A DNA stretch of 64,000 nucleotides from an uncultured virus (IMG/VR IMGVR_UViG_3300027805_000013) (Duplodnaviria > Heunggongvirae > Uroviricota > Caudoviricetes): the IMG/VR virus record IMGVR_UViG_3300027805_000013; one strand, 5' to 3'. Shown here piece after piece: positions 1 through 57,970 of this stretch. Each line of letters starts with the position of its first letter. Within the stretch, counting starts at the first letter, position 1. Made by a program: the position numbers and the translations under genes. The notes below the pieces were generated by a model. The model was not told the DNA's origin, made no database searches, and worked only from the letters and a program-made list of their open reading frames with translations.

Positions 1-276
1 TTCGCAGTTACCACCCGTACCAATTTCTTCCATGTATGGGTTGTTTACTGTGCCACACTTATCACACTTACCATTCGTGTGCCAAGTGTCATGCATACAG
101 TGTACGCAAGTGTAATGTTTTTTATCCATTTGTTTTCTCCTTGTTTGCTGATTCAATAAACTGTTTGCAACATTTAATTAATAATTCTTCTGCATCTTTA
201 TAATGTATTTTACCATCGTCCCATTGTTCATGGATATCGTTGACTGAAAAATGCAAATCATCAATGGTGTATAAAA

Positions 277-462
277 TCATACAGTTTCCTCCTCTAACAT
301 GGATTCAATTTGAGCGAGTTTTGTTTTCTGTTCTTGCAAGAATTCCAAAACAGTTTTGAACTCATCAAAACCATCGATGCGGACATCATACAAATTGCCC
401 TCATCAATCGCATCACACAAATCAAAATAAACTTCTTGAACTTTAGTTTTTAGGCTGCTCAT
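277..462 (-). CDS. hypothetical early protein
   Basis: ORF in a tightly packed leftward cluster; GAGGAG RBS; ATGA overlap. Confidence 0.7.
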   Translation of the reverse strand: MSSLKTKVQEVYFDLCDAIDEGNLYDVRIDGFDEFKTVLEFLQEQKTKLAQIESMLEEETV

Positions 463-650
463 ACAGTTTTCTCCTCAAATGAAATATCCCAGTTACCTAC
501 AAAATTACCATTAACATCTCGCACAGTACCCCAGTCGTTAGCCTCTTCAAGCTTGGCTATGATATCTTTTAAGTTATCTATCAATTGGTATTGCACTGGT
601 TGATTGTGATACGCATCATTATCTATGTCAATAGTTAAATTAAATTTCAT
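459..650 (-). CDS. hypothetical early protein (MKFNLTIDIDND...)
   Basis: Start moved to ATG 650, which has an AAGGA RBS. Confidence 0.7.
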   Translation of the reverse strand: MKFNLTIDIDNDAYHNQPVQYQLIDNLKDIIAKLEEANDWGTVRDVNGNFVGNWDISFEEKTV

Positions 651-670
651 GATGGTTTCCTTTTTTAAAA

Positions 671-835
671 TTAAGCGTAATACGAAATGCCTTCGGGGAT
701 TGCATTGACATCTGTGCATTCCTCAAAGTGATCCACACTATGGACGGGCATACGATTCCCGTCCACCCACACAAACACCTTACTATCTGGCGACTCAAAT
801 GCCTGTAACGCTGATATCAGTTCTTGTATTGTCAT
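671..835 (-). CDS. hypothetical 54-aa early protein (MTIQELISALQAF...)
   Basis: Hand-translated; ATGA overlap with the upstream ORF; not in the ORF track. Confidence 0.6.
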   Translation of the reverse strand: MTIQELISALQAFESPDSKVFVWVDGNRMPVHSVDHFEECTDVNAIPEGISYYA

Positions 836-1197
836 GATAGTTTCTCAGTTAAGTTACCTTCGTTCCACATGGCTCTAGCAAAATTAATAATGTCATCACT
901 TACTGGGAAATCATAACTCTCGGCATGATGCTCAATAACATCCATAGGACATTGATCTTCTGTGGGGAAATTGTCGCCCCACAATTCACCCCATGATTTC
1001 TCATTGGTTTTTTCTACCCAGTAATCGCACACACCGACTTCCATTGAACGCATTACCATTGCATTCATGCAATCCAATGACAAGTAACCCCAATTAGATA
1101 ATTCATTGCGGACATCCAAAACATTCTTATTGGGATTTTTTGCGATGTACTCCTTGATATAACTATCATCCACTTCAAATACCATTTTGATTTTCAT
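832..1197 (-). CDS. hypothetical early protein
   Basis: ORF with AAGGAG RBS. Confidence 0.75.
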   Translation of the reverse strand: MKIKMVFEVDDSYIKEYIAKNPNKNVLDVRNELSNWGYLSLDCMNAMVMRSMEVGVCDYWVEKTNEKSWGELWGDNFPTEDQCPMDVIEHHAESYDFPVSDDIINFARAMWNEGNLTEKLS

Positions 1198-1322
1198 AAC
1201 ATTCTCCTTGTAAGAACCTTAATTGTCGTACTACTGGTGCAAAAATATATAGGGATAAACCCTGGCCAAGTCAGGCCAGGGTAAACCCGGGTCTTTGGGC
1301 TGCGGGGTATCCCTATGCATTT

Positions 1323-1532
1323 TCATGAGTCTACTTCTACTTCCGCCACCCTCCAATCGTGGGCATTGTAGTCCTCCATGTAACCCTTCTTAACTGCGTA
1401 TGCCATGCCTTTTATGAGATCAGCAAGTTCTGCCTCTGCCTCCTCACGAGTATCAAACAATTCAAGATCCTCTTCATTAGGCACTTCCCACCCCCCATCA
1501 AAAAACAATGCCTCAATTTGGTATTTTTTCAT
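1323..1532 (-). CDS. hypothetical acidic early protein
   Basis: ORF with RBS; overlap-coupled. Confidence 0.7.
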   Translation of the reverse strand: MKKYQIEALFFDGGWEVPNEEDLELFDTREEAEAELADLIKGMAYAVKKGYMEDYNAHDWRVAEVEVDS

Positions 1533-1771
1533 TTGATCCTCTGAATAAACATATTGTCAAACCAATCACCCACACCCGTTTCGAGTTCATCAAATACATT
1601 GTGGATGGTTTTATTAAACATATTGATGAACTCATTGTCATCATACACATTGGTATCTTTATATTGGTGATAGAACGAATTGACAGTATGAATTTCGATG
1701 ATCTCGCCACCATTCCATTCACATAAAAATAATTTTTCGGTTTCTTTACTTAAATTAATTGGATATTGCAT
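1529..1771 (-). CDS. hypothetical early protein
   Basis: ORF with GGAGG RBS. Confidence 0.7.
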   Translation of the reverse strand: MQYPINLSKETEKLFLCEWNGGEIIEIHTVNSFYHQYKDTNVYDDNEFINMFNKTIHNVFDELETGVGDWFDNMFIQRIK

Positions 1772-1940
1772 TTTCTAATACCTCCATGTTTGCAGTTACA
1801 TTTTCCATTTTATTGGTGCGAAAACAATTCTCAAAAATTGCCCATTTGAAATCGTACTTTTGTAATTTTGCTAAATACTCTTCCGATACTTCCAAATCAA
1901 ATTGAGCATTGACTCTAATTTTGAATTTCTTTTTTGCCAT
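1755..1940 (-). CDS. hypothetical early protein
   Basis: Start moved to ATG 1940 after GGGAG. Confidence 0.65.
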   Translation of the reverse strand: MAKKKFKIRVNAQFDLEVSEEYLAKLQKYDFKWAIFENCFRTNKMENVTANMEVLENAISN

Positions 1941-2011
1941 GTTAACTCCCTGTAAACTTATGATCAATATTGATCCAGTAATGCACTCATAGAATGCACT
2001 ACTAGGCAACA

Positions 2012-2476
2012 TTAAATAAATTGGTATTTACCCTCGCCAAACATTTTGTTTAATTGTTTCGTTGCCAAATCCATGTCATGGGTTTTGATTGTGCGAAATG
2101 CATTTTCGCTATCAGTCAATAACTTAAACAAAATACCCTTTTTGCGATGCTTAGACATTTCGTACTCTTCCACCAATATGCCAATTGCAGTATCAGTATC
2201 GTGATCAAAAAATTCTGTGCCATTGATCTCGCCAAAACTGGATTTCCATTGCCCTAGTGATTTGACATACTTGCCCCAAATAATGGCGGAGGGTGACTCA
2301 TCCCACCCGTATTGCCCACCCATAAATTTGAGATCATAAAATTTCATATCAATGCATCCACCATTGCCATCATTGTGGACATACGCAAATTTTTTACCAT
2401 CAAGATATAGGTTGAATTGATATCCGCCACCATCATCGGTTGCCCATGATTTAAAACCCTTAATTTGAAAATTCAT
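2012..2476 (-). CDS. hypothetical early protein
   Basis: 154-aa ORF; AAGGAG RBS. Confidence 0.75.
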   Translation of the reverse strand: MNFQIKGFKSWATDDGGGYQFNLYLDGKKFAYVHNDGNGGCIDMKFYDLKFMGGQYGWDESPSAIIWGKYVKSLGQWKSSFGEINGTEFFDHDTDTAIGILVEEYEMSKHRKKGILFKLLTDSENAFRTIKTHDMDLATKQLNKMFGEGKYQFI

Positions 2477-2682
2477 GCTATCTCCTTTAAATAGGTTGTG
2501 TTGCTAAAAAGTGGTGCTTTACCATTACGATTAAATACTTCAGTCAAACAAGAATTTTCACTACAAATAATTCTGACTGAAAAATGTTTGGAATGAAACC
2601 ACCCAGTACCATCGGCTAAAAAATAATCACCATGAAATAATTCACGATCTTCCCATCCGTTGCCTTCGCTAAATTTTTTCAT
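2473..2682 (-). CDS. hypothetical early protein
   Basis: Start moved to ATG 2682 after GGAG. Confidence 0.65.
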   Translation of the reverse strand: MKKFSEGNGWEDRELFHGDYFLADGTGWFHSKHFSVRIICSENSCLTEVFNRNGKAPLFSNTTYLKEIA

Positions 2683-2774
2683 ACTACTCTCCAATTGTTG
2701 ATTAAAAACTACTGACTCCAACAAAAACCACTCTATAGAATGGTTTTTAGTAGATCAATAGGGGTAAACCCTAG

Positions 2775-2966
2775 TCAGGCTGCCCTAGGGGGGTTGTTGA
2801 CAATTAAACCCGCACTAATCAATTGGTTTAAGGTTCTGCCAAAATGCCCTTGTAATTGGTAACCCAATCGAGTGTCATGCAAGTATTGCCAAGCCTCAAA
2901 AACTGTATCCTCGTCATCGCACTCAATAAAACCCTCTGCAATTCCTACTGCTTGATAACTATCCAT
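2775..2966 (-). CDS. hypothetical early protein
   Basis: GGAGGAGG RBS. Confidence 0.75.
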   Translation of the reverse strand: MDSYQAVGIAEGFIECDDEDTVFEAWQYLHDTRLGYQLQGHFGRTLNQLISAGLIVNNPPRAA

Positions 2967-2968
2967 TT

Positions 2969-3310
2969 TTATACCTCCTCCATGTTAATAAAATCTTCTA
3001 CAGTTTTATTTAAAACCAATTGCTTTACTTCGTCAATGGTTTCAAAATTACCCAATACTTTTGGGTTGATTTGTTTGCGATCCATTGCCAAATCGAGAAT
3101 TACACAATAGCGATAATACTTTTCGCCACCATCGTGACACTCGCTTAACTCTGGATTTTTGTAATCACAATAGATCATTAAATATTGCTCGTTACCAAAA
3201 TCCTTACCAATACAAGGGCAAGCATCATTCTTATATGAATAATCGTCAAACCCTTCAATGACGGGTAGATCATCGTCATATCGTGGAAATGCATTTTTTA
3301 CTAATGACAT
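2969..3310 (-). CDS. hypothetical early protein
   Basis: ORF in operon. Confidence 0.7.
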   Translation of the reverse strand: MSLVKNAFPRYDDDLPVIEGFDDYSYKNDACPCIGKDFGNEQYLMIYCDYKNPELSECHDGGEKYYRYCVILDLAMDRKQINPKVLGNFETIDEVKQLVLNKTVEDFINMEEV

Positions 3311-3312
3311 TG

Positions 3313-3549
3313 TTAAACCCCTTTCAATAGATTTTTTAATTCGGTTTTTAAAACCTTAGCATCGTTGCCTCTAAAGGTTGATGCATTGGCTAAAAAGTAC
3401 ATCACAATAGAACGGGCATCATCATTAATAAATTTATCGTTGATACTACCCAATTGAGTCATGGCATCCAAATAAGGTTTAGCACCAAAATAAGGTTTTG
3501 CCCAAACCCGTTTGATATCGTAAGCAATACTAGAAATTGATCGTTGCAT
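3313..3549 (-). CDS. hypothetical phage early protein
   Basis: AGGAG RBS; first gene after a non-coding block. Confidence 0.75.
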   Translation of the reverse strand: MQRSISSIAYDIKRVWAKPYFGAKPYLDAMTQLGSINDKFINDDARSIVMYFLANASTFRGNDAKVLKTELKNLLKGV

Positions 3550-3654
3550 TTTTTACTCTCCTATATAGTGGGCACAATTGCCCTACCCTTAAAATATCAT
3601 ATTGGTATAAAATTAATACTAGGATTTTCCCTATACTATCGAGGCCAGGTTTTT

Positions 3655-4033
3655 GATAGATTTTGACTATATCGATTTAAAACTGGTTTTTAGGGGCATA
3701 GAGCGGTTTTGATTGGGGTTGATCCATATGCATTAGGTGGTTTGTGATCGTTGAATATGGGGCATTCTGATCGTTAGGGTTTTCCCCTATGGTTTTGGCG
3801 CATTTTGGGGTTGTCAATAGGTATTTACCCTAAGATCAGCACTACACCAAAAAATGACTCTGGTCAATAGGGGTTTACCCTAATGCTGCCATAGCATGAT
3901 CGATAGATTTTAACTAAACCCTCCAAAACCGATTAAAACGAGCATAGAGCGGTTTTATGCTTAATTGATCCATATGCATTAGGTGGTTTGTGATCCTTGA
4001 ATATGGCACGATCTGATCGTTAGGGTTTACCCT
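3655..4033. repeat. imperfect ~130-bp direct repeat (about 3655-3785 and 3902-4033)
   Basis: Shared GCATAGAGCGGTTTT...TTGATCCATATGCATTAGGTGGTTTGTGATC.TTGAATATGG...CTGATCGTTAGGGTTT. Confidence 0.9.
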
Positions 4034-4105
4034 GGCCAGGCTGCCTAAAAAATAGGCAAATTAAAAATGTCAATAGGGGTTTACCCTATAGCCAGTTTTT
4101 GGGCA

Positions 4106-4137
4106 TAAAAAAACCCCTAGTAGAAAACTAGGGGTTT
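4106..4137 (-). terminator. rho-independent terminator
   Basis: AAACCCCTAG/CTAGGGGTTT stem followed by a T-run on the minus strand, just after ORF 4154-4906. Confidence 0.8.
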
Positions 4138-4153
4138 ATTGGGGTTTACTGGT

Positions 4154-4906
4154 TTAGATTGTATCTACCACAAATCCGCTCGTATCCTTTTTGGCTTTAC
4201 CCTTAGCATACAATGCCACAATGCTATTGGGTTTATCTAGGTGTCGAATGTCTGAATTATCCCCGCTTACTACTGGCAAACCTAAAAATTCTGTAGGGAT
4301 ATGATCTACTGATCTAAATACTGTTGCAATTCTCATTTTATTGTCGATTGCTTTTTTAACATATTTTTGGAATGTCACTACTCCACTATATGAATAAGTA
4401 AGATCATAGTTTTTTGGGATGTCAATCCGATTTGCAATTTTTGTGTAATCGTAAAATTGTACTTCGGGAAATAGATCGAAAATGGTAATAGATCTAATTT
4501 TGCCATTCATGAATTCATAATCAAAATACACATTTTCCCATTTAATATCACTTGTACCATTTAACCTAATCAAAAGGGTTAGATCTTGCTTTTTTGCTTG
4601 CTTGATACCCTTTTGAATATCGAGTACCAAATTGAGCATAAAATTTTGGCGATCATTAAAAAAGTATTGGGTTTTAGCAATACGAGCATTTTGAATACTG
4701 GTAAATGCCCCTCTACCCGCACTATATAAACAAGCATTTTCGCATTGTGCTAGTTTTGCCATTGGGCATACTTGAAAACCCGAAATGTCACTAGGTGCTA
4801 AATAGAGAATGCCCGTATAAAATCCTAGGGTTTGCCCCTTTACTGTTTTGCTATTGGTATCAAATCCCAATAAGGATTTGCGTATTACTGGCTTATTAAT
4901 TTGCAT
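4154..4906 (-). CDS. GP88-like phage protein (Cys cluster CX7CX3C)
   Basis: CPMAKLAQCENACL, IRLNGTSDI and FYDYTK motifs recalled from the gp88-like family; start at 4906 after AAGGTG. Confidence 0.65.
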   Translation of the reverse strand: MQINKPVIRKSLLGFDTNSKTVKGQTLGFYTGILYLAPSDISGFQVCPMAKLAQCENACLYSAGRGAFTSIQNARIAKTQYFFNDRQNFMLNLVLDIQKGIKQAKKQDLTLLIRLNGTSDIKWENVYFDYEFMNGKIRSITIFDLFPEVQFYDYTKIANRIDIPKNYDLTYSYSGVVTFQKYVKKAIDNKMRIATVFRSVDHIPTEFLGLPVVSGDNSDIRHLDKPNSIVALYAKGKAKKDTSGFVVDTI

Positions 4907-5262
4907 ATATTCACCTTGTAAATGATTAATAAAATTTACTACTAACATAATTTTATTGTTTAGTTAAAGCAAAATACAGATAAATAAACCCTAATAGGGT
5001 TATCCCTGGTCTTTATTGGTACATTTCTTGCTTGTCATTCTAGATGATAATCATTTGCATTTGCCCTATGCCTCTCGCACGCTCGTATAGCCCCATAGTG
5101 GCATTTTGCCTATTTTTGATACTTACCCCTTAACTCAATGCCGATCGTTCAATATGGATCGTTTTGGCAAGCACCAATTTGGGGCAGCTTGCACCAAAAC
5201 AATGCAGCCCAAATTGTCAATAGGTACTTTCCCTATTAGGGTAAACCCTGGGCCGGTAGTGT

Positions 5263-5500
5263 GTGAGTACTTACTAACTTACCGGATTGTTGCACTGCAC
5301 CAAATTGCCATGCACCAAATTGGTGCGGCCAGGATGTGAGTGAGTGCTAACTAACTAATCTGGTCAGTAAGTGCTCACTAACTTGGCCGATGTGAGTGAG
5401 TGCTTACTTACCACATTGTTGCACTGCAACAAGTAAGTGAGTGCTTACTTCAGCGCTGCACCAAATTGGTGCATTGTCAGGTTAGTGAGTGCTTACTAAC
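5263..5500. promoter_or_regulatory. cluster of six SlmA-binding-site-like palindromes
   Basis: GTGAGTACTTAC 5263, GTGAGTGCTAAC 5340, GTAAGTGCTCAC 5367, GTGAGTGCTTAC 5396/5437/5485; compare E. coli consensus GTGAGTACTCAC. Confidence 0.65.
5457..5473. promoter_or_regulatory. NtrC-type binding site
   Basis: TGCACCAAATTGGTGCA matches consensus TGCACCA-N3-TGGTGCA perfectly; near copies at 5311, 5170, 5190. Confidence 0.65.
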
Positions 5501-5650
5501 CAAGGGGGGCAATTTGTTGCGCCGCACCATCCTTTTTTGACTCCCTGAGTTTCGGGCGCGGGGGTCCCACACCAATCTCAAGGCCGTGCAAATTTCCCAA
5601 TATTTTTTTATTTTTCATAATGTGGAATAAACTTGTATAGAATTAGGCTC

Positions 5651-5671
5651 AAATGATAATCATTCTCATTT
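5651..5671. promoter_or_regulatory. Fur box
   Basis: AAATGATAATCATTCTCATTT; second copy ATGATAATCATTTGCAT at 5044-5060. Confidence 0.7.
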
Positions 5672-5681
5672 AGAAATGCTG

Positions 5682-6018
5682 TAAGTTATTGATTCTACTA
5701 GGTGCTGTATAGAACTATCCATAGAATGTATAGATTCTCAAAAGTTATGTGCTTGATTTGTAACGATAAAAAAAAATTGCTGCACTGCATCCTGGATACT
5801 GTGGATAGTTCTATACAACTTTTGAGTGTCGTAAGTGCTTGATTAAGTTAAATAAAAAATTTCAAATCCATAGTATCCATAGTATCCACAGTATTTCTCT
5901 ATTATTTCTCTTTTAAAAAAAAGAATAATACTAGTAGGGGGTATAAGTGAAATATACTGTGGATACTATGGATACTGTGGATTGAAGTTCTATACATTGG
6001 AATAAAATCAATCACTTG
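5682..6018. promoter_or_regulatory. IHF consensus sites (three)
   Basis: WATCAA-N4-TTR matches at 5682-5694 (-), 5832-5844 (-), 6006-6018 (+). Confidence 0.6.
5863..5980. repeat. origin-like element copy A: inverted arrays of 9-bp TATCCAYAG repeats flanking an AT-rich spacer
   Basis: Three repeats, AT-rich core, three inverted repeats; near-identical copy at 58077-58195. Confidence 0.75.
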
Positions 6019-6095
6019 GAAGAAGGGCTGGTGGACAAAAACATCGTTTTTTGTATCCTGTCTTCTGTGGATACTATGGATAGTTCTATACAATA

Positions 6096-6127
6096 GGGCG
6101 GATGTTGTATAGAAATTGCATAAGTAG
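6096..6127 (+). promoter_or_regulatory. phage late promoter GGGCG-N16-TGCATAAGTAG
   Basis: One of six copies with identical spacing; ATG begins at the 5th base after the motif (probably leaderless). Confidence 0.85.
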
Positions 6128-6131
6128 ATGT

Positions 6132-6359
6132 ATGAAGAGACTTAATCCACTTACCAAATCCCCATACCGTTGTGGCGATCAGCACGGCGATATGTTCTTT
6201 TACAACTACAGGACCGATGTCCTATCCAACGGATTCCGTGGCGAACGTTGGCTCAGTCCGATTGCTTTTGAAAAAGCGCTAAGACGGGATAGACTAGCCA
6301 AACTGAAAAAACGGCGACAAGCTGGTAAGCTGCGACGCAGGTCTAAATATGACGATTAA
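6132..6359 (+). CDS. hypothetical basic protein
   Basis: ATG at the predicted transcription start. Confidence 0.6.
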   Translation: MKRLNPLTKSPYRCGDQHGDMFFYNYRTDVLSNGFRGERWLSPIAFEKALRRDRLAKLKKRRQAGKLRRRSKYDD

Positions 6360-6630
6360 GTATTACGCATACCAAATCAAAGGTTTGCTTGAGAAACCCG
6401 ATAAAAGCATCGGAGCGATTTTAGTAATGATTTGCACCCCTACGGCGTTTGAAGAAGTCCAAGTGCCAGCCTCCGTTTTTAATAGGGAGACTCTGGCGTT
6501 TTTAAGATATCGAATTGCGGTGAACGATTTTATGGACATCAACAAACTACCATGGGACGTCATTAAAAAGATTCGAGGGCCATTGAACCAGTACCTCGAT
6601 GATTGGATTGCGGATGGCAATCTCAAGTAG
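6349..6630 (+). CDS. hypothetical protein
   Basis: ORF overlap-coupled in the late operon. Confidence 0.65.
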   Translation: MTIKYYAYQIKGLLEKPDKSIGAILVMICTPTAFEEVQVPASVFNRETLAFLRYRIAVNDFMDINKLPWDVIKKIRGPLNQYLDDWIADGNLK

Positions 6631-7594
6631 CACCCCCATCCCTGTTCTAGATGGTTGGGCTTTAGCAAAAGACTTATCCAAAGGTGATTGGGTCTTTTCT
6701 AAGGAGGGCAAACCTATCCAGATCAAAAGCATCCAGACTTACACCCCGGCGGAAATGTTTTGCGTGGCACTGTCCGATGGGGTTTATGTGGATGTGGATC
6801 AACACACCAAGTTCCCCGTCCAAACCCTTTTTGATCGGCAAACAGAAAGCCGTTACCGTGGCATCTATAAACGCTGGGCAAAGCAACGCTATGCCAGCCC
6901 CTTAGAAATGCTCGAGCGTGGCTTAGACGGCGGGTACGATCAGGGGTTTTATTCGGTGCGTACTACGAAGCCCATCCATTTTCCGTTTGAAGACCACCCC
7001 GTGCCACCCTTTATCGTGGGGATGTGGATGACACGAACCAACCCCAACAACCGTTACATGTTACGGGAGAGCGTGGTGGAGTATGTGCAAAAGGAAATCC
7101 GCAAAACGGGCTGGAGTTTTAAGATGCAATCCCGTAATGTCATGGAGATTCGCCCCTCAATTCGGACATCCTTCCTTACTCGGTACCAGACTGTGCCGTC
7201 CAAACTGCCAATCGAGTACACCTTTGGCTCGGTGGAGCAACGAATTGATCTGTTACGGGGTGTGATCGCCACAAAACCAGGTTCGTACAACGAAAAACTC
7301 GATAAGTTCTTGATTTTTAGTAGAAATTTAAACTTTTTGATTGTTTTGCAAGGGATTTGCGAGTCTCTTGGCATGAAAACGCAAGTTTTTGAGAATAAAT
7401 CGTCTTTTACGCACCAACTTGCATTTAAGTCGCAACTTTTTTTAAATCCCCTTCAAAAAAGTCGCAAAATTTCGAAGCATTTTGATCGTAGGATCGTAAA
7501 AACCATCGAAAAGATTGACCCTAAACCCAGTATACACATCGTTACTGACGAACCATTTGTCGTAGGACAAGGATTTTTACCAATATGGCATTAA
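6614..7594 (+). CDS. free-standing intein-derived protein (Hint plus degenerate LAGLIDADG)
   Basis: N-term AISSSTPIPVLDGW..KDLSKGDWVF..EGKP resembles intein block A; C-term IVKTIEKID..FVVGQGFLP resembles blocks F/G; SVEQRIDLLRGVI resembles the endonuclease block; no exteins. Confidence 0.75.
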   Translation: MAISSSTPIPVLDGWALAKDLSKGDWVFSKEGKPIQIKSIQTYTPAEMFCVALSDGVYVDVDQHTKFPVQTLFDRQTESRYRGIYKRWAKQRYASPLEMLERGLDGGYDQGFYSVRTTKPIHFPFEDHPVPPFIVGMWMTRTNPNNRYMLRESVVEYVQKEIRKTGWSFKMQSRNVMEIRPSIRTSFLTRYQTVPSKLPIEYTFGSVEQRIDLLRGVIATKPGSYNEKLDKFLIFSRNLNFLIVLQGICESLGMKTQVFENKSSFTHQLAFKSQLFLNPLQKSRKISKHFDRRIVKTIEKIDPKPSIHIVTDEPFVVGQGFLPIWH

Positions 7595-9030
7595 CCAAAG
7601 GACAAGAAAAGTTACTTGCTAACTTTGCACAGAAAAACAAACATTGGCCCAAGGATCAACTGGAATTAGCCCTGTGGCGGGTGCGTTGGGAGCTCCAAGC
7701 GCTTGATCACCAACGAGAACCCGACAACGGCGAGTATGACACCATGCTCATGTTGGCTGGTCGTGGTGCAGGTAAGACTTACACCGCCTCAAACTGGATT
7801 GGACTGCGTGCAGCCCTTAACAACGGCACCCGTTGGCTCGTAACTGCCCCGACATCGAACGACATTCGCGCGACATGCTTTGAGGGCGACTCGGGTTTAA
7901 TGAATATCATCCCGCCCGTCTTGATCGACACCTACAACAAGTCGCTCTTTGAGATCCACCTTAAAAACGGCTCGATTATCCAAGGCATCCCCGGCTCCGA
8001 ACCAGAGCGTTACCGTGGTAAGCAGTTCCATGGGGCGTGGTTTGACGAGTTGGCTGCGTTTGACTACCTAGACGACGCTTGGGATCAAGCACAGTTTACC
8101 TTGCGTTTGCGTGACCCACGCATAGCTCGAGTTCAGCAGATTGTTACCACCACCCCCAAGCCCAGAGAGTTGATTGTTGACTTAAACGAGGGTAAGGTAG
8201 GGGGCGATGTGTATGTGGTGAACGCCAGCTCGTACGATAACCGAGCCAACCTCTCTAAATCGTTTTTTAAAGCCCTCGAGACATACGAAGGCACCGACCT
8301 TGGTAAACAGGAGATCTACGGTGCGATCCTCGATCCAGAAGACGCTGGTATTGTCAAGCGTAAGTGGTTTAAGATGTGGCCAGCCAAGAAACCAACGCCC
8401 GTCTTGGAGTATGTGATCGCTTCATACGATCCAGCGACTTCGGAAAAGACTGTCAATGACCCAACCGCATGCGAGGTGTGGGGCGTGTTTGAGGACACCG
8501 ACAAAGGAACTTGCATCATCCTTTTGGATGCATGGGATGCTCACATGTCTTACCCTGAGTTGCGTAGGAAGGTGGTTGACGATTACAAAGAGGTGGTGTA
8601 CGGTGCGGACAACGACTTTGCCAAGGGTAGGAAAGCAGACCTCATTCTGATCGAGGATAAGTCGGCAGGCATTTCGCTCATCCAAGAGCTCCAGCAGTCT
8701 GGCACCCCCGTGCGGGGTTACAACCCGGGCAAAGCGGACAAAGTGCAGCGTTTGAACATCGTGGCACCGCTCATTGCCAAGGGCAAAGCGTATGTGCCAG
8801 AGAACCCCGAGATACCCGGCGAGTTTGCTGATTGGGCAAAACGGTTTATCCGTCAAGTCTGTTCGTTCCCAGAGTCTGGTGGGCACGATGACTATGTCGA
8901 TGCCCTATCCCAAGCGTTACGGGTTTTACGGGACTCGGGTTGGATCTCGCTCGATCCCCTGCCCCACCGAGACTACGACTATGCCGACGATGAGATGCGT
9001 AAGAAACGATACAACCCCTATGCGGTGTAG
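7585..9030 (+). CDS. terL: terminase large subunit
   Basis: Walker A GRGAGKT, Walker B WFDE, TTTPK, nuclease YDPA and HDDYVDA. Confidence 0.95.
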   Translation: MALTKGQEKLLANFAQKNKHWPKDQLELALWRVRWELQALDHQREPDNGEYDTMLMLAGRGAGKTYTASNWIGLRAALNNGTRWLVTAPTSNDIRATCFEGDSGLMNIIPPVLIDTYNKSLFEIHLKNGSIIQGIPGSEPERYRGKQFHGAWFDELAAFDYLDDAWDQAQFTLRLRDPRIARVQQIVTTTPKPRELIVDLNEGKVGGDVYVVNASSYDNRANLSKSFFKALETYEGTDLGKQEIYGAILDPEDAGIVKRKWFKMWPAKKPTPVLEYVIASYDPATSEKTVNDPTACEVWGVFEDTDKGTCIILLDAWDAHMSYPELRRKVVDDYKEVVYGADNDFAKGRKADLILIEDKSAGISLIQELQQSGTPVRGYNPGKADKVQRLNIVAPLIAKGKAYVPENPEIPGEFADWAKRFIRQVCSFPESGGHDDYVDALSQALRVLRDSGWISLDPLPHRDYDYADDEMRKKRYNPYAV

Positions 9031-9093: not shown

Positions 9094-9906
9094 ATGCTCC
9101 CATATCCAATCAAATCACCGCAAGAAATGATGTTTGAGTCTGCTGGCATTCCTCACATGCAAGCCGGTGGTCAACCACCGTCGCCGGGCACAACTACTCG
9201 ATTATCACGAGCAGCCACGCAAGATGGCGTGAGCGGTTTGGGTTCTATTGGTCCGTTGGTAGATATGACACCACCCAACCCCGTTTCGTTTTATCGCTCT
9301 AATCCGCAAAACAAATTTGGCGCAAAAGATCGATTGGAAACTTTGCCGTCTCGTGTGGATAAAACCACCATGCAAGATTTTATCAAGGCAATGAGAGCGG
9401 GTGAAAAGTATGGCGTGCCACAACTACCGCCCGAATATTTGGCGGCGTTAATGTTGCAAGAAGGTCGTAGCGACTTTGGGTTTAATGAAATGAACATGAA
9501 CAATCCAAGAGCTCGAATGATTGCAGAAATGTTAATGAAAGAAGGCTTTGATGATACTTCCGCTGGGTTTGGCGGAGCATTGTATGATAAAATGCAAACT
9601 GCAATGCGATTAAAAAAACCCTTCTCAACCATTTGGAATGGCACAGGCGTTAGCATGTACGGCCAAACAGGAAAACAATACACCGATAAATTTGGGCAAG
9701 GTTTTGGTGCGGTCATGCATCCCAAAAACGAACCTTTGCTTGGATCGATCAGAGAAGCGTATAATTACCAACCACCGCAACCACCGCAAGGTATTTCTGC
9801 TGAAGGTTTAGCAAACGCCATGCCAATGTTTAATGCGGGTGGTTCGACAACACCGTTTTATGACATGAGTAAACTTGTCATTCAAAAACATTTATCTGGA
9901 ACATAA
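9094..9906 (+). CDS. putative internal virion protein, possibly lysozyme/transglycosylase-like
   Basis: LAALMLQEG...WNGTG pattern; MQAGG and FNAGG motifs at the ends. Confidence 0.45.
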   Translation: MLPYPIKSPQEMMFESAGIPHMQAGGQPPSPGTTTRLSRAATQDGVSGLGSIGPLVDMTPPNPVSFYRSNPQNKFGAKDRLETLPSRVDKTTMQDFIKAMRAGEKYGVPQLPPEYLAALMLQEGRSDFGFNEMNMNNPRARMIAEMLMKEGFDDTSAGFGGALYDKMQTAMRLKKPFSTIWNGTGVSMYGQTGKQYTDKFGQGFGAVMHPKNEPLLGSIREAYNYQPPQPPQGISAEGLANAMPMFNAGGSTTPFYDMSKLVIQKHLSGT

Positions 9907-57903: not shown

Positions 57904-57970
57904 AATTTTGCCCTACTTTTTCAATTTTCTTTATATCTTTTAGTAATAAGCATATAACTAAAAGTAATCA

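Follow-up and report, generated by a model that had tools for sequence, protein, structure and literature searches.

Sites for host proteins near phage genome termini are known singly, as in the IHF site at lambda cos and the DnaA boxes proposed for T5. In the latter phage, binding of DnaA has been proposed to stop injection (bioRxiv 10.1101/866236), and neither Fur nor LexA occurs in the available portion of that preprint's T5 text. For SlmA of E. coli, the available text of PMC3020112 gives the consensus GTGAGTACTCAC, with positions 1, 2, 4 and 5 conserved, a purine at position 3 and a pyrimidine at position 6. We describe here a phage locus in which predicted sites for SlmA, PhaR, NtrC and Fur stand together beside a putative packaging junction.

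The locus lies in a 64,000-nucleotide stretch of DNA from an uncultured phage of freshwater metagenomes (present as contigs in 20 runs); this whole stretch is called the window below. The window holds most of a tailed phage genome, with a gene-free gap at 4949-6101. Small early genes occupy the minus strand from 1 to 4948, the terminase, portal, capsid, tail and lysis genes lie on the plus strand past the gap, and the DNA polymerase, helicase, primase and sigma factor genes are on the minus strand (Table 1). The closest cultured relative of the terminase is that of Caulobacter phage RW, at 42% identity. Just before the terminase gene, a 331-aa ORF (6599-7594) matches the intein-like inserts of terminase families but is free-standing; at a similar place in RW there is an additional "terminase" gene, and the RW terminal repeat ends inside it. 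In many cultured phages a homologue of the gp88-family gene lies 0.3-1.8 kb from one end of the record and points inward. The gp88-family protein carries a CxxxxxxCxxxC cluster, is encoded among the first genes from the end in many unrelated phages, and is a candidate early counter-defence protein; one contig variant has no such gene. That about 750 bp of the gap are non-coding, as originally predicted, agrees with our searches, in which the gap ORF at 5106-5339 (77 aa) had no PHROG or Pfam match and no Rfam family reached its gathering score in the gap. Readings of the region as a small ORF and as a structured RNA were rejected on these two results, and a CRISPR array was rejected because the spacing is irregular (27-77 nt).

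Table 1. Features of the gap and its flanks in window coordinates (protein names denote predicted, host-factor-type sites)
Feature	Position	Strand	Detail
gp88-family gene (PF17338)	4154..4948	-	leads the early genes; transcription runs away from the array
Fur-type box 1	5043..5059		about 95 nt upstream of the gp88 start
NtrC-type 17-mers	5170..5473		strong: 5457 (perfect), 5311 (1 mismatch); weak: 5170 (2 mismatches), 5190 (3 mismatches)
Core array	5263..5529		11 close-packed host-factor-type sites, centres 18-32 bp apart
Six SlmA-type 12-bp palindromes	5263..5496		5263, 5340, 5367, 5396, 5437, 5485
PhaR-type sites	5288..5529		5288, 5417 (perfect 17-mer 5416-5432), 5515
Weaker PhaR-type site	5778		past the landmark
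Conserved landmark (putative terminase cut region)	5504..5615	+	aligned across relatives; precedes the terminase operon
Landmark parts			G run 5504-5509; G/C-rich element 5554-5570; A/T tract 5600-5615
cosQ-like heptamer element	5539..5547		GACTCCCTG; GGGTCCTG in some relatives
Terminase-side sites	5613..5694		15-mer 5613; Fur-type box 2 5649-5669 (motif match at 5652); IHF consensus 5682
Further IHF consensus matches	5832, 6006
Repeat block	5706..6114		GGATAC and CTATACA repeats; 41-bp inverted repeat with arms 5865-5905 and 5943-5983 flanking an A/T core
Terminase large subunit	7585..9030	+	operon transcribed away from the array

The core array reads S-P-N-S-S-S-P-S-N-S-P, where S, P and N denote SlmA-, PhaR- and NtrC-type sites. 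Five of the SlmA-type sites are exact to GTRAGYRCTYAC and one has a single mismatch, and a 20-bp extended palindrome surrounds most of them. The Fur-type boxes, putatively assigned by the 7-1-7 inverted-repeat consensus, have 1 and 2 mismatches to it; box 1 is polymorphic, being kept in two of six near-identical relatives at a 1-mismatch threshold. We compared the motif counts in 5040-5800 with those in 1000 dinucleotide shuffles of the same DNA. The observed counts were 6 for SlmA-type (shuffle mean 0.010), 3 for NtrC-type at up to 2 mismatches (0.001), 2 for Fur-type (0.003) and 3 for PhaR-type at up to 2 mismatches (0.027), and none of the 1000 shuffles reached any of these. At equal thresholds, matches in the remaining 63.2 kb of the window number 3 for SlmA, 0 for NtrC, 0 for Fur and 5 for PhaR. 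The 15-mer at 5613 was reached in 3 of 1000 shuffles (1 versus 0.003), with a pattern partly derived from that site itself. The IHF site is not significant alone, since 55 of 1000 shuffles reach its count (1 versus a mean of 0.059) and 11 more matches lie elsewhere in the window.

Thus the original prediction located its motifs well, all of them being present within 1-2 nt of the positions it gave, and four of its motif types exceed shuffled sequence whereas IHF does not. It had also drawn one array across 5040-5800. A dense array is indeed present, confined to 5263-5529, and 5600-5800 forms a separate block beyond the landmark. The further claim that the sites are too dense and too mixed for one promoter is supported. 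In 5040-5800 there is no sigma-54 site, and sigma-70-like promoter matches do not exceed the chance level (7 versus 11.4). In a blastn comparison with cultured phages, the Fur box was matched over 28-31 nt only and the core array had no match. In a low-depth contig of one run (X7) the sequence jumps from 5501 back to 5263, so that the array is duplicated, a structure that recombination between SlmA-type sites could have produced by expanding the array.

Two other repeated elements were seen in the early region. Two 68-nt repeats, 91% identical and 246 nt apart, lie in its second non-coding gap (3679-4032). The palindrome TAGGG-W4-CCCTA occurs before early genes at 1278, 2761, 3870, 4022, 4076, 4996 and 5238, often abuts TTGAC on the minus strand, and is found in other phage families too; it was not enriched in five host genomes (18 versus 16 for the control).

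Which proteins might bind the array was examined in bacterial genomes. The site at 5417 is the TG-N-TGC-N3-GCAA motif that, in the available part of PMC3206438, is footprinted in Herbaspirillum. A phasin, phaC, phaZ or phaR gene starts within 250 nt in 38 of at least 120 bacterial loci with the exact PhaR 17-mer (among the matches listed, 32 phasin and 2 each of the others), in a set that has no random-locus control. The PhaR identity of the predicted sites is well supported by these two observations, as the original assignment had it. The NtrC assignment also held: its motif has 7 sites against 1 for the reversed control in five host genomes, one of them before glnA, one before a TorF-family porin gene (a gene that precedes glnK-amtB), one before a PcaR-type regulator gene and 4 unassigned, and NtrC identity is moderately supported. 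PhaR and NtrC are encoded in all five SlmA-positive genomes tested. The 15-mer of 5613, originally called perhaps IclR-like, had 10 matches in hosts versus 9 for the control, upstream of aceE in two of five genomes and near a phasin gene in one, and we assign it to no factor. Among 92 window ORFs compared with PHROGs (71 of them also with Pfam) there are no TetR-, Fur-, PhaR- or NtrC-like genes. Since SlmA, PhaR and NtrC sites occur together, the site types point to a host in the Burkholderiales.

The assignment to SlmA stands on one side only. Among the 256 half-sites of 128 phage SlmA-type sites, position 1 is G in 100%, position 2 T in 98%, position 3 G or A in 84% (T in 16%), position 4 A in 85%, position 5 G in 84% and position 6 T or C in 99%, in keeping with the E. 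coli binding rules; equal-length terminase controls hold 3 SlmA-type sites. A SlmA orthologue scores above the cut-off in 50 of 61 genomes of Burkholderiales families, and in this presumed host group its HTH, recognition helix included, is near-identical to that of the solved SlmA. Chromosomal enrichment, in contrast, was not found in Burkholderiales. The exact 12-mer is present in only 14 of the 61 genomes, at 1-2 copies each, and the motif gave 51 matches against 81 for the control in five genomes and no excess in 151. Strict matches at 18 host loci are mostly inside genes with no shared neighbour, and 10 near matches behave likewise. This lack of enrichment counts against any explanation in which host SlmA coats the array. 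E. coli itself has 12 sites when up to 2 mismatches are allowed, and none of these is near Ter (1.0-2.9 Mb); at 3 mismatches it has only 78 versus 66 for the control, so that the chromosome control is blunt. Targets of the beta-proteobacterial SlmA may be few, or the sites may be bound by a different TetR protein. Most genomes of Burkholderiales families combine a clear SlmA orthologue with almost no consensus sites, and the role of SlmA in this order may differ from nucleoid occlusion.

Relatives were collected by a terminase scan in which 80 of 189 viral loci were kept; the 53 with enough upstream DNA, together with the window, gave 29 non-redundant regions. The landmark was found by script in 16 of these, the other 13 being left out of the side counts, and sites were counted in the 500 nt on its early-gene side and on its terminase side. 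Over the 16 loci, SlmA, NtrC, PhaR and sigma-54 sites number 160 on the early-gene side (66 SlmA, 59 PhaR, 22 sigma-54 and 13 NtrC) versus 3 on the terminase side (1 SlmA, 1 PhaR, 1 NtrC and 0 sigma-54). IHF sites are reversed, with 0 on the early-gene side and 17, in 12 of the 16 relatives, on the terminase side, where the mean in 200 shuffles was 0.8 and the maximum 4. The IHF site had originally been listed as a member of the array; in the window it sits across the putative cut from the array, and this part of the prediction is withdrawn. Sites in relatives are tightly spaced (median 23.5 bp, with 122 of 149 spacings at 35 bp or less), and their arrays comprise 5-16 sites of up to five factors. 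Some are of a single type (SlmA only in L034, sigma-54 only in L044) and others are mixed (sigma-54 and SlmA in L048, PhaR and NtrC in L019, NtrC and Fur in L080). The number, order and mix of sites differ freely among relatives, and all arrays end beside the conserved landmark. Site content compared in this way, as the original prediction had proposed, is conserved as a set of motifs and not as sequence.

These comparisons bear on the reading in which the sites sense host state by tuning divergent early and late promoters to nitrogen, iron and carbon-storage status, which we think unlikely. The factors are genuine nutrient regulators, Fur-type box 1 lies close to the gp88 start (Table 1), and NtrC, sigma-54 and IHF sites are all present in the family; in addition, SlmA can activate transcription in Vibrio cholerae according to the available part of PMC5519180. 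Yet close relatives swap regulators, NtrC and sigma-54 sites occur apart (NtrC without sigma-54 in the window, L019 and L049, sigma-54 without NtrC in L044 and L048), the sigma-54 sites stand in tandem runs that face both ways (14 and 8), and sigma-70-like promoter matches are no more numerous than chance would give. Free exchange, two-way sigma-54 sites and NtrC sites without sigma-54 all argue against promoter logic. An ordinary NtrC/sigma-54 promoter was rejected because 5040-5800 lacks a sigma-54 site and the sites of relatives are tandem, two-way and often without NtrC.

The same arrangement recurs in other phages. A scan for tandem SlmA sites gave at least 121 loci, 80 of them with flanks; 91 of the 125 longest ORFs were scanned, and 14 terminases came from tblastn. 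Among the matches listed, 63 of the 80 viral loci have their tandem SlmA sites upstream of a terminase gene and none has them on the opposite side, the terminase start being 449-2,570 nt downstream of the array. These 63 terminases fall into 10 clusters at 40% identity (28, 14, 12, 2, 2 and five singletons, among the matches listed), and a G run and an A/T tract follow the last SlmA site in most loci of the other terminase clusters in that set. Tandem PhaR sites have a terminase, always downstream, in 28 of 47 loci, and 25 of the 47 arrays are mixed. For tandem NtrC sites there is a strong terminase match in 12 of 19, all in this phage's own terminase family. No terminase was found within 3.5 kb in 17 of the 80 SlmA loci among the matches listed, nor in 19 of the 47 PhaR loci, some of which are short contigs. 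At six such SlmA loci (L289, L312, L348, L294, L298 and L301) the tandem sites stand beside a primase-helicase, methyltransferase or integrase gene; these may be long-repeat phages or represent another use. In one prophage, read by eye, two NtrC sites are flanked by an apparent HNH gene and a G run.

No such array is present in the regions examined of RW, MW202545, DC31, MW202701, DSL-LC05, RpY1, LUZ24, T7, RSB1 and JG068, and the array is therefore an accessory trait that is not generally needed. The stretch of BPP-1 examined is all coding. In DSL-LC05 (L477, 2340-2790) a G-rich landmark is preceded by a different repeat array of the GACCCAC/GTGGGTC type, possibly sites for the regulator of another host. 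Most T7 end loci are non-essential according to the available part of PMC11482910.

Placement beside so many terminases has to be accounted for by any other use of the sites. We consider it very unlikely that they serve mainly as decoys, by which genomes would draw off low-copy regulators as they replicate, or as a division block, in which SlmA loaded on them would inhibit FtsZ and halt division of the host. The SlmA-type site is the commonest element (66 of 160) and near-perfect where host chromosomes hold few, and the contig with a duplicated array would suit titration; but three relatives (L019, L044 and L080) have no SlmA site, and the position to one side of the packaging site, seen in 10 terminase clusters (among the matches listed), is left unexplained and argues against a simple decoy. 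Still less do we favor the idea, in our judgement highly improbable, that a phage protein (a terminase small subunit, origin binder or repressor) binds the repeats, the SlmA type especially, and that their host likeness arose by chance. The absence of SlmA-motif enrichment in candidate host chromosomes is what this idea expects, many small window ORFs belong to no family, and the window may fall short of the full genome by a few kb. Against it, the 128 SlmA-type sites vary by the tolerance pattern of E. coli SlmA, the PhaR and NtrC motifs mark expected host genes, and the SlmA motif recurs beside terminases of 10 unrelated clusters among the matches listed.

The array stops just before the landmark, whose makeup and alignment across relatives suggest that it is the region where terminase cuts. 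The repeat block past the terminase-side sites is probably a replication origin or a cosB-like terminase-loading region. The GGATAC inverted-repeat block occurs again at about 57960-58200; this copy lies upstream of the primase-helicase gene, has two PhaR-like sites, and is a possible second origin or autoregulatory site. The order of array, cosQ-like site, cut region, IHF sites with repeats, and terminase genes matches that of lambda; by this analogy the array is placed where the last-packaged, first-entering end would be expected, and both the cut position and the leading end are put forward on that footing. No physical end is visible in the assemblies: contigs bridge the array region in four of four runs examined, and depth is higher at about 5045-7130 in two of the four, which may be strain mixing. 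Among 111 loci with an array and a G run, contigs end within 1.5 kb on the terminase side in 14 and on the array side in 17, with no clear pile-up; four of the 111 end 49-87 nt past the G run, and G runs alone could cause such ends. The deposited RW genome has a terminal repeat of 2,940 bp; this repeat is on the terminase side and its inner edge falls within the gap that corresponds to ours, and the available part of the RW paper (PMC11053796) does not state the method by which the ends were set. Should that repeat be genuine and present in our phage too, the array would sit 2-3 kb in from the leading end. The edge of the RW repeat nevertheless gives indirect support to an end in this gap, as do the gp88 homologues close to record ends and the G/C runs found within 60 nt of the left end in LUZ24 and Lo5R7ANS.

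Our best explanation, held tentatively and at somewhat under an even chance, is that host proteins coat the last-packaged, first-entering end of the DNA and act there by occupancy, probably as a shield. The gap would be the junction at which terminase cuts the concatemer, and the early-gene side of the cut would carry tiled high-affinity sites for host proteins (SlmA, PhaR, NtrC and Fur, and sigma-54 holoenzyme in relatives). The array side would be packaged last and, by analogy with lambda, would enter the cell first. If it is occupancy that matters and not the identity of the protein, lineages could swap site types, and factors active in different nutrient states could provide a coat whatever the state of the host. 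The likeliest use would be to protect the leading end from end-loading nucleases and end-sensing defenses for the minutes before early genes act. Both binding and shielding we infer from the arrangement of the sites, and close tiling in particular suggests occupancy as such. Four functions had been proposed at the outset: a ratchet for DNA entry, a shield against exonucleases, titration of nitrogen, iron and carbon regulators, and sensing of host state. The free exchange of factors argues against titration and sensing as the main purpose, and the need for a ratchet is smallest when ejection begins. Two considerations count against a shield as well: RecBCD evicts bound proteins, and the 40-130 bp between the last site and the landmark leave room for a nuclease to load.

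Packaging itself offers another use for a bound row. Host proteins there might slow terminase, whose motor would arrive from the array side, or mark the junction for cutting at the cosQ-like signal, or let a terminal repeat be duplicated; such a brake or termination aid seems to us rather unlikely. Polarity and interchangeability fit it equally, a cosQ-like heptamer follows the array, and the Fur box of lambda and phi80 (below) abuts cosQ. On the other hand, packaging motors are strong, lambda cosQ alone is held to be sufficient, and many phages with the G-rich landmark have no array. No result separates shielding from a packaging brake; we prefer shielding because sharing of the landmark by many phages without an array is as expected for an optional counter-defense.

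No description of such mixed arrays was found in the literature searched, in which coverage of subscription journals is incomplete. What is new here is the interchangeable, mixed set of sites, their strict polarity at a packaging landmark, the tests of PhaR and NtrC in their host context, the negative outcome for SlmA in host chromosomes, and the Fur box at cosQ of lambda and phi80. An interchangeable set, one-sided and beside terminases of 10 unrelated clusters, points to a common role for which no phage gene is required, and it suggests that many unrelated phages use host proteins to cover the first-entering DNA end, each with a different site mix. That a modular row of host operators is a widespread gene-free strategy, in which host proteins cap the leading end and guard it against end-attacking nucleases or defenses before phage proteins exist, is a generalization we find attractive and still rather doubtful. 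The question touches on the survival of incoming phage DNA ends in the time before early gene products appear, as well as on the as yet unexplained injection stop of T5, and the site mix hints at the host group of uncultured phages.

The array shares sequence with several described systems and differs from each in arrangement. The chromosomal SlmA sites of E. coli have the same 12-bp consensus and tolerances in the available part of PMC3020112, but they are dispersed outside Ter, whereas the phage sites stand head to tail, interleaved with other operators. PhaR/PhbF operators and NtrC enhancers of beta-proteobacteria share sequence with the window sites and lie before phasin and other PHA genes and before glnA; the window sites, unlike them, have no regulated gene or matched sigma-54 promoter.

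In the lambda right end (NC_001416; L500, 248-275) and in phi80 (L505, 485-512), a perfect 7-1-7 Fur core immediately precedes cosQ at a distance of about 35-65 nt from the right end. The central base and flanks differ between the two phages, and the phi80 box lies inside the annotated cosQ/R4 feature. We found no paper naming the lambda Fur box, and older lambda and T5 papers may mention Fur boxes. In both phages the IHF and terminase sites (cosB) are across cos from the Fur-box side. HK97 has a weaker Fur core before its terminal G run. Four Fur-like boxes lie in a gene-free gap of phAPEC8 (L084, 4916-5022), followed by a G-rich run, and the box is matched in more than 100 records of related coliphages and Salmonella phages. 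Lambda and phi80 resemble our phage in the succession of protein site or sites, cosQ-like heptamer, G/C-rich cut region, IHF sites with repeats, and terminase genes. They differ in having one Fur box where relatives of our phage have 5-16 sites of up to five factors; moreover, the terminase here is closest to that of RW and not to lambda's, and any cohesive ends here are hypothetical.

T5 (L506) has a Fur box at 228-252, near its left end. A cluster of six or seven Fur-like boxes with LexA and DnaA sites occupies 9400-9710, inside the annotated injection-stop signal and shortly ahead of the nick at 9748. No DnaA boxes occur in our array, and no A1/A2 homologue was detected in the window. If the cap reading is true, the Fur boxes at cosQ of lambda and phi80 and the boxes of the T5 injection stop would be minimal versions of the cap. 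Repeat Region 3 of the T5 terminal repeat is, like the array, gene-free, palindrome-dense and furnished with host-factor sites; its repeat order is conserved among T5 relatives, whereas here both the order and the identity of the sites are shuffled.
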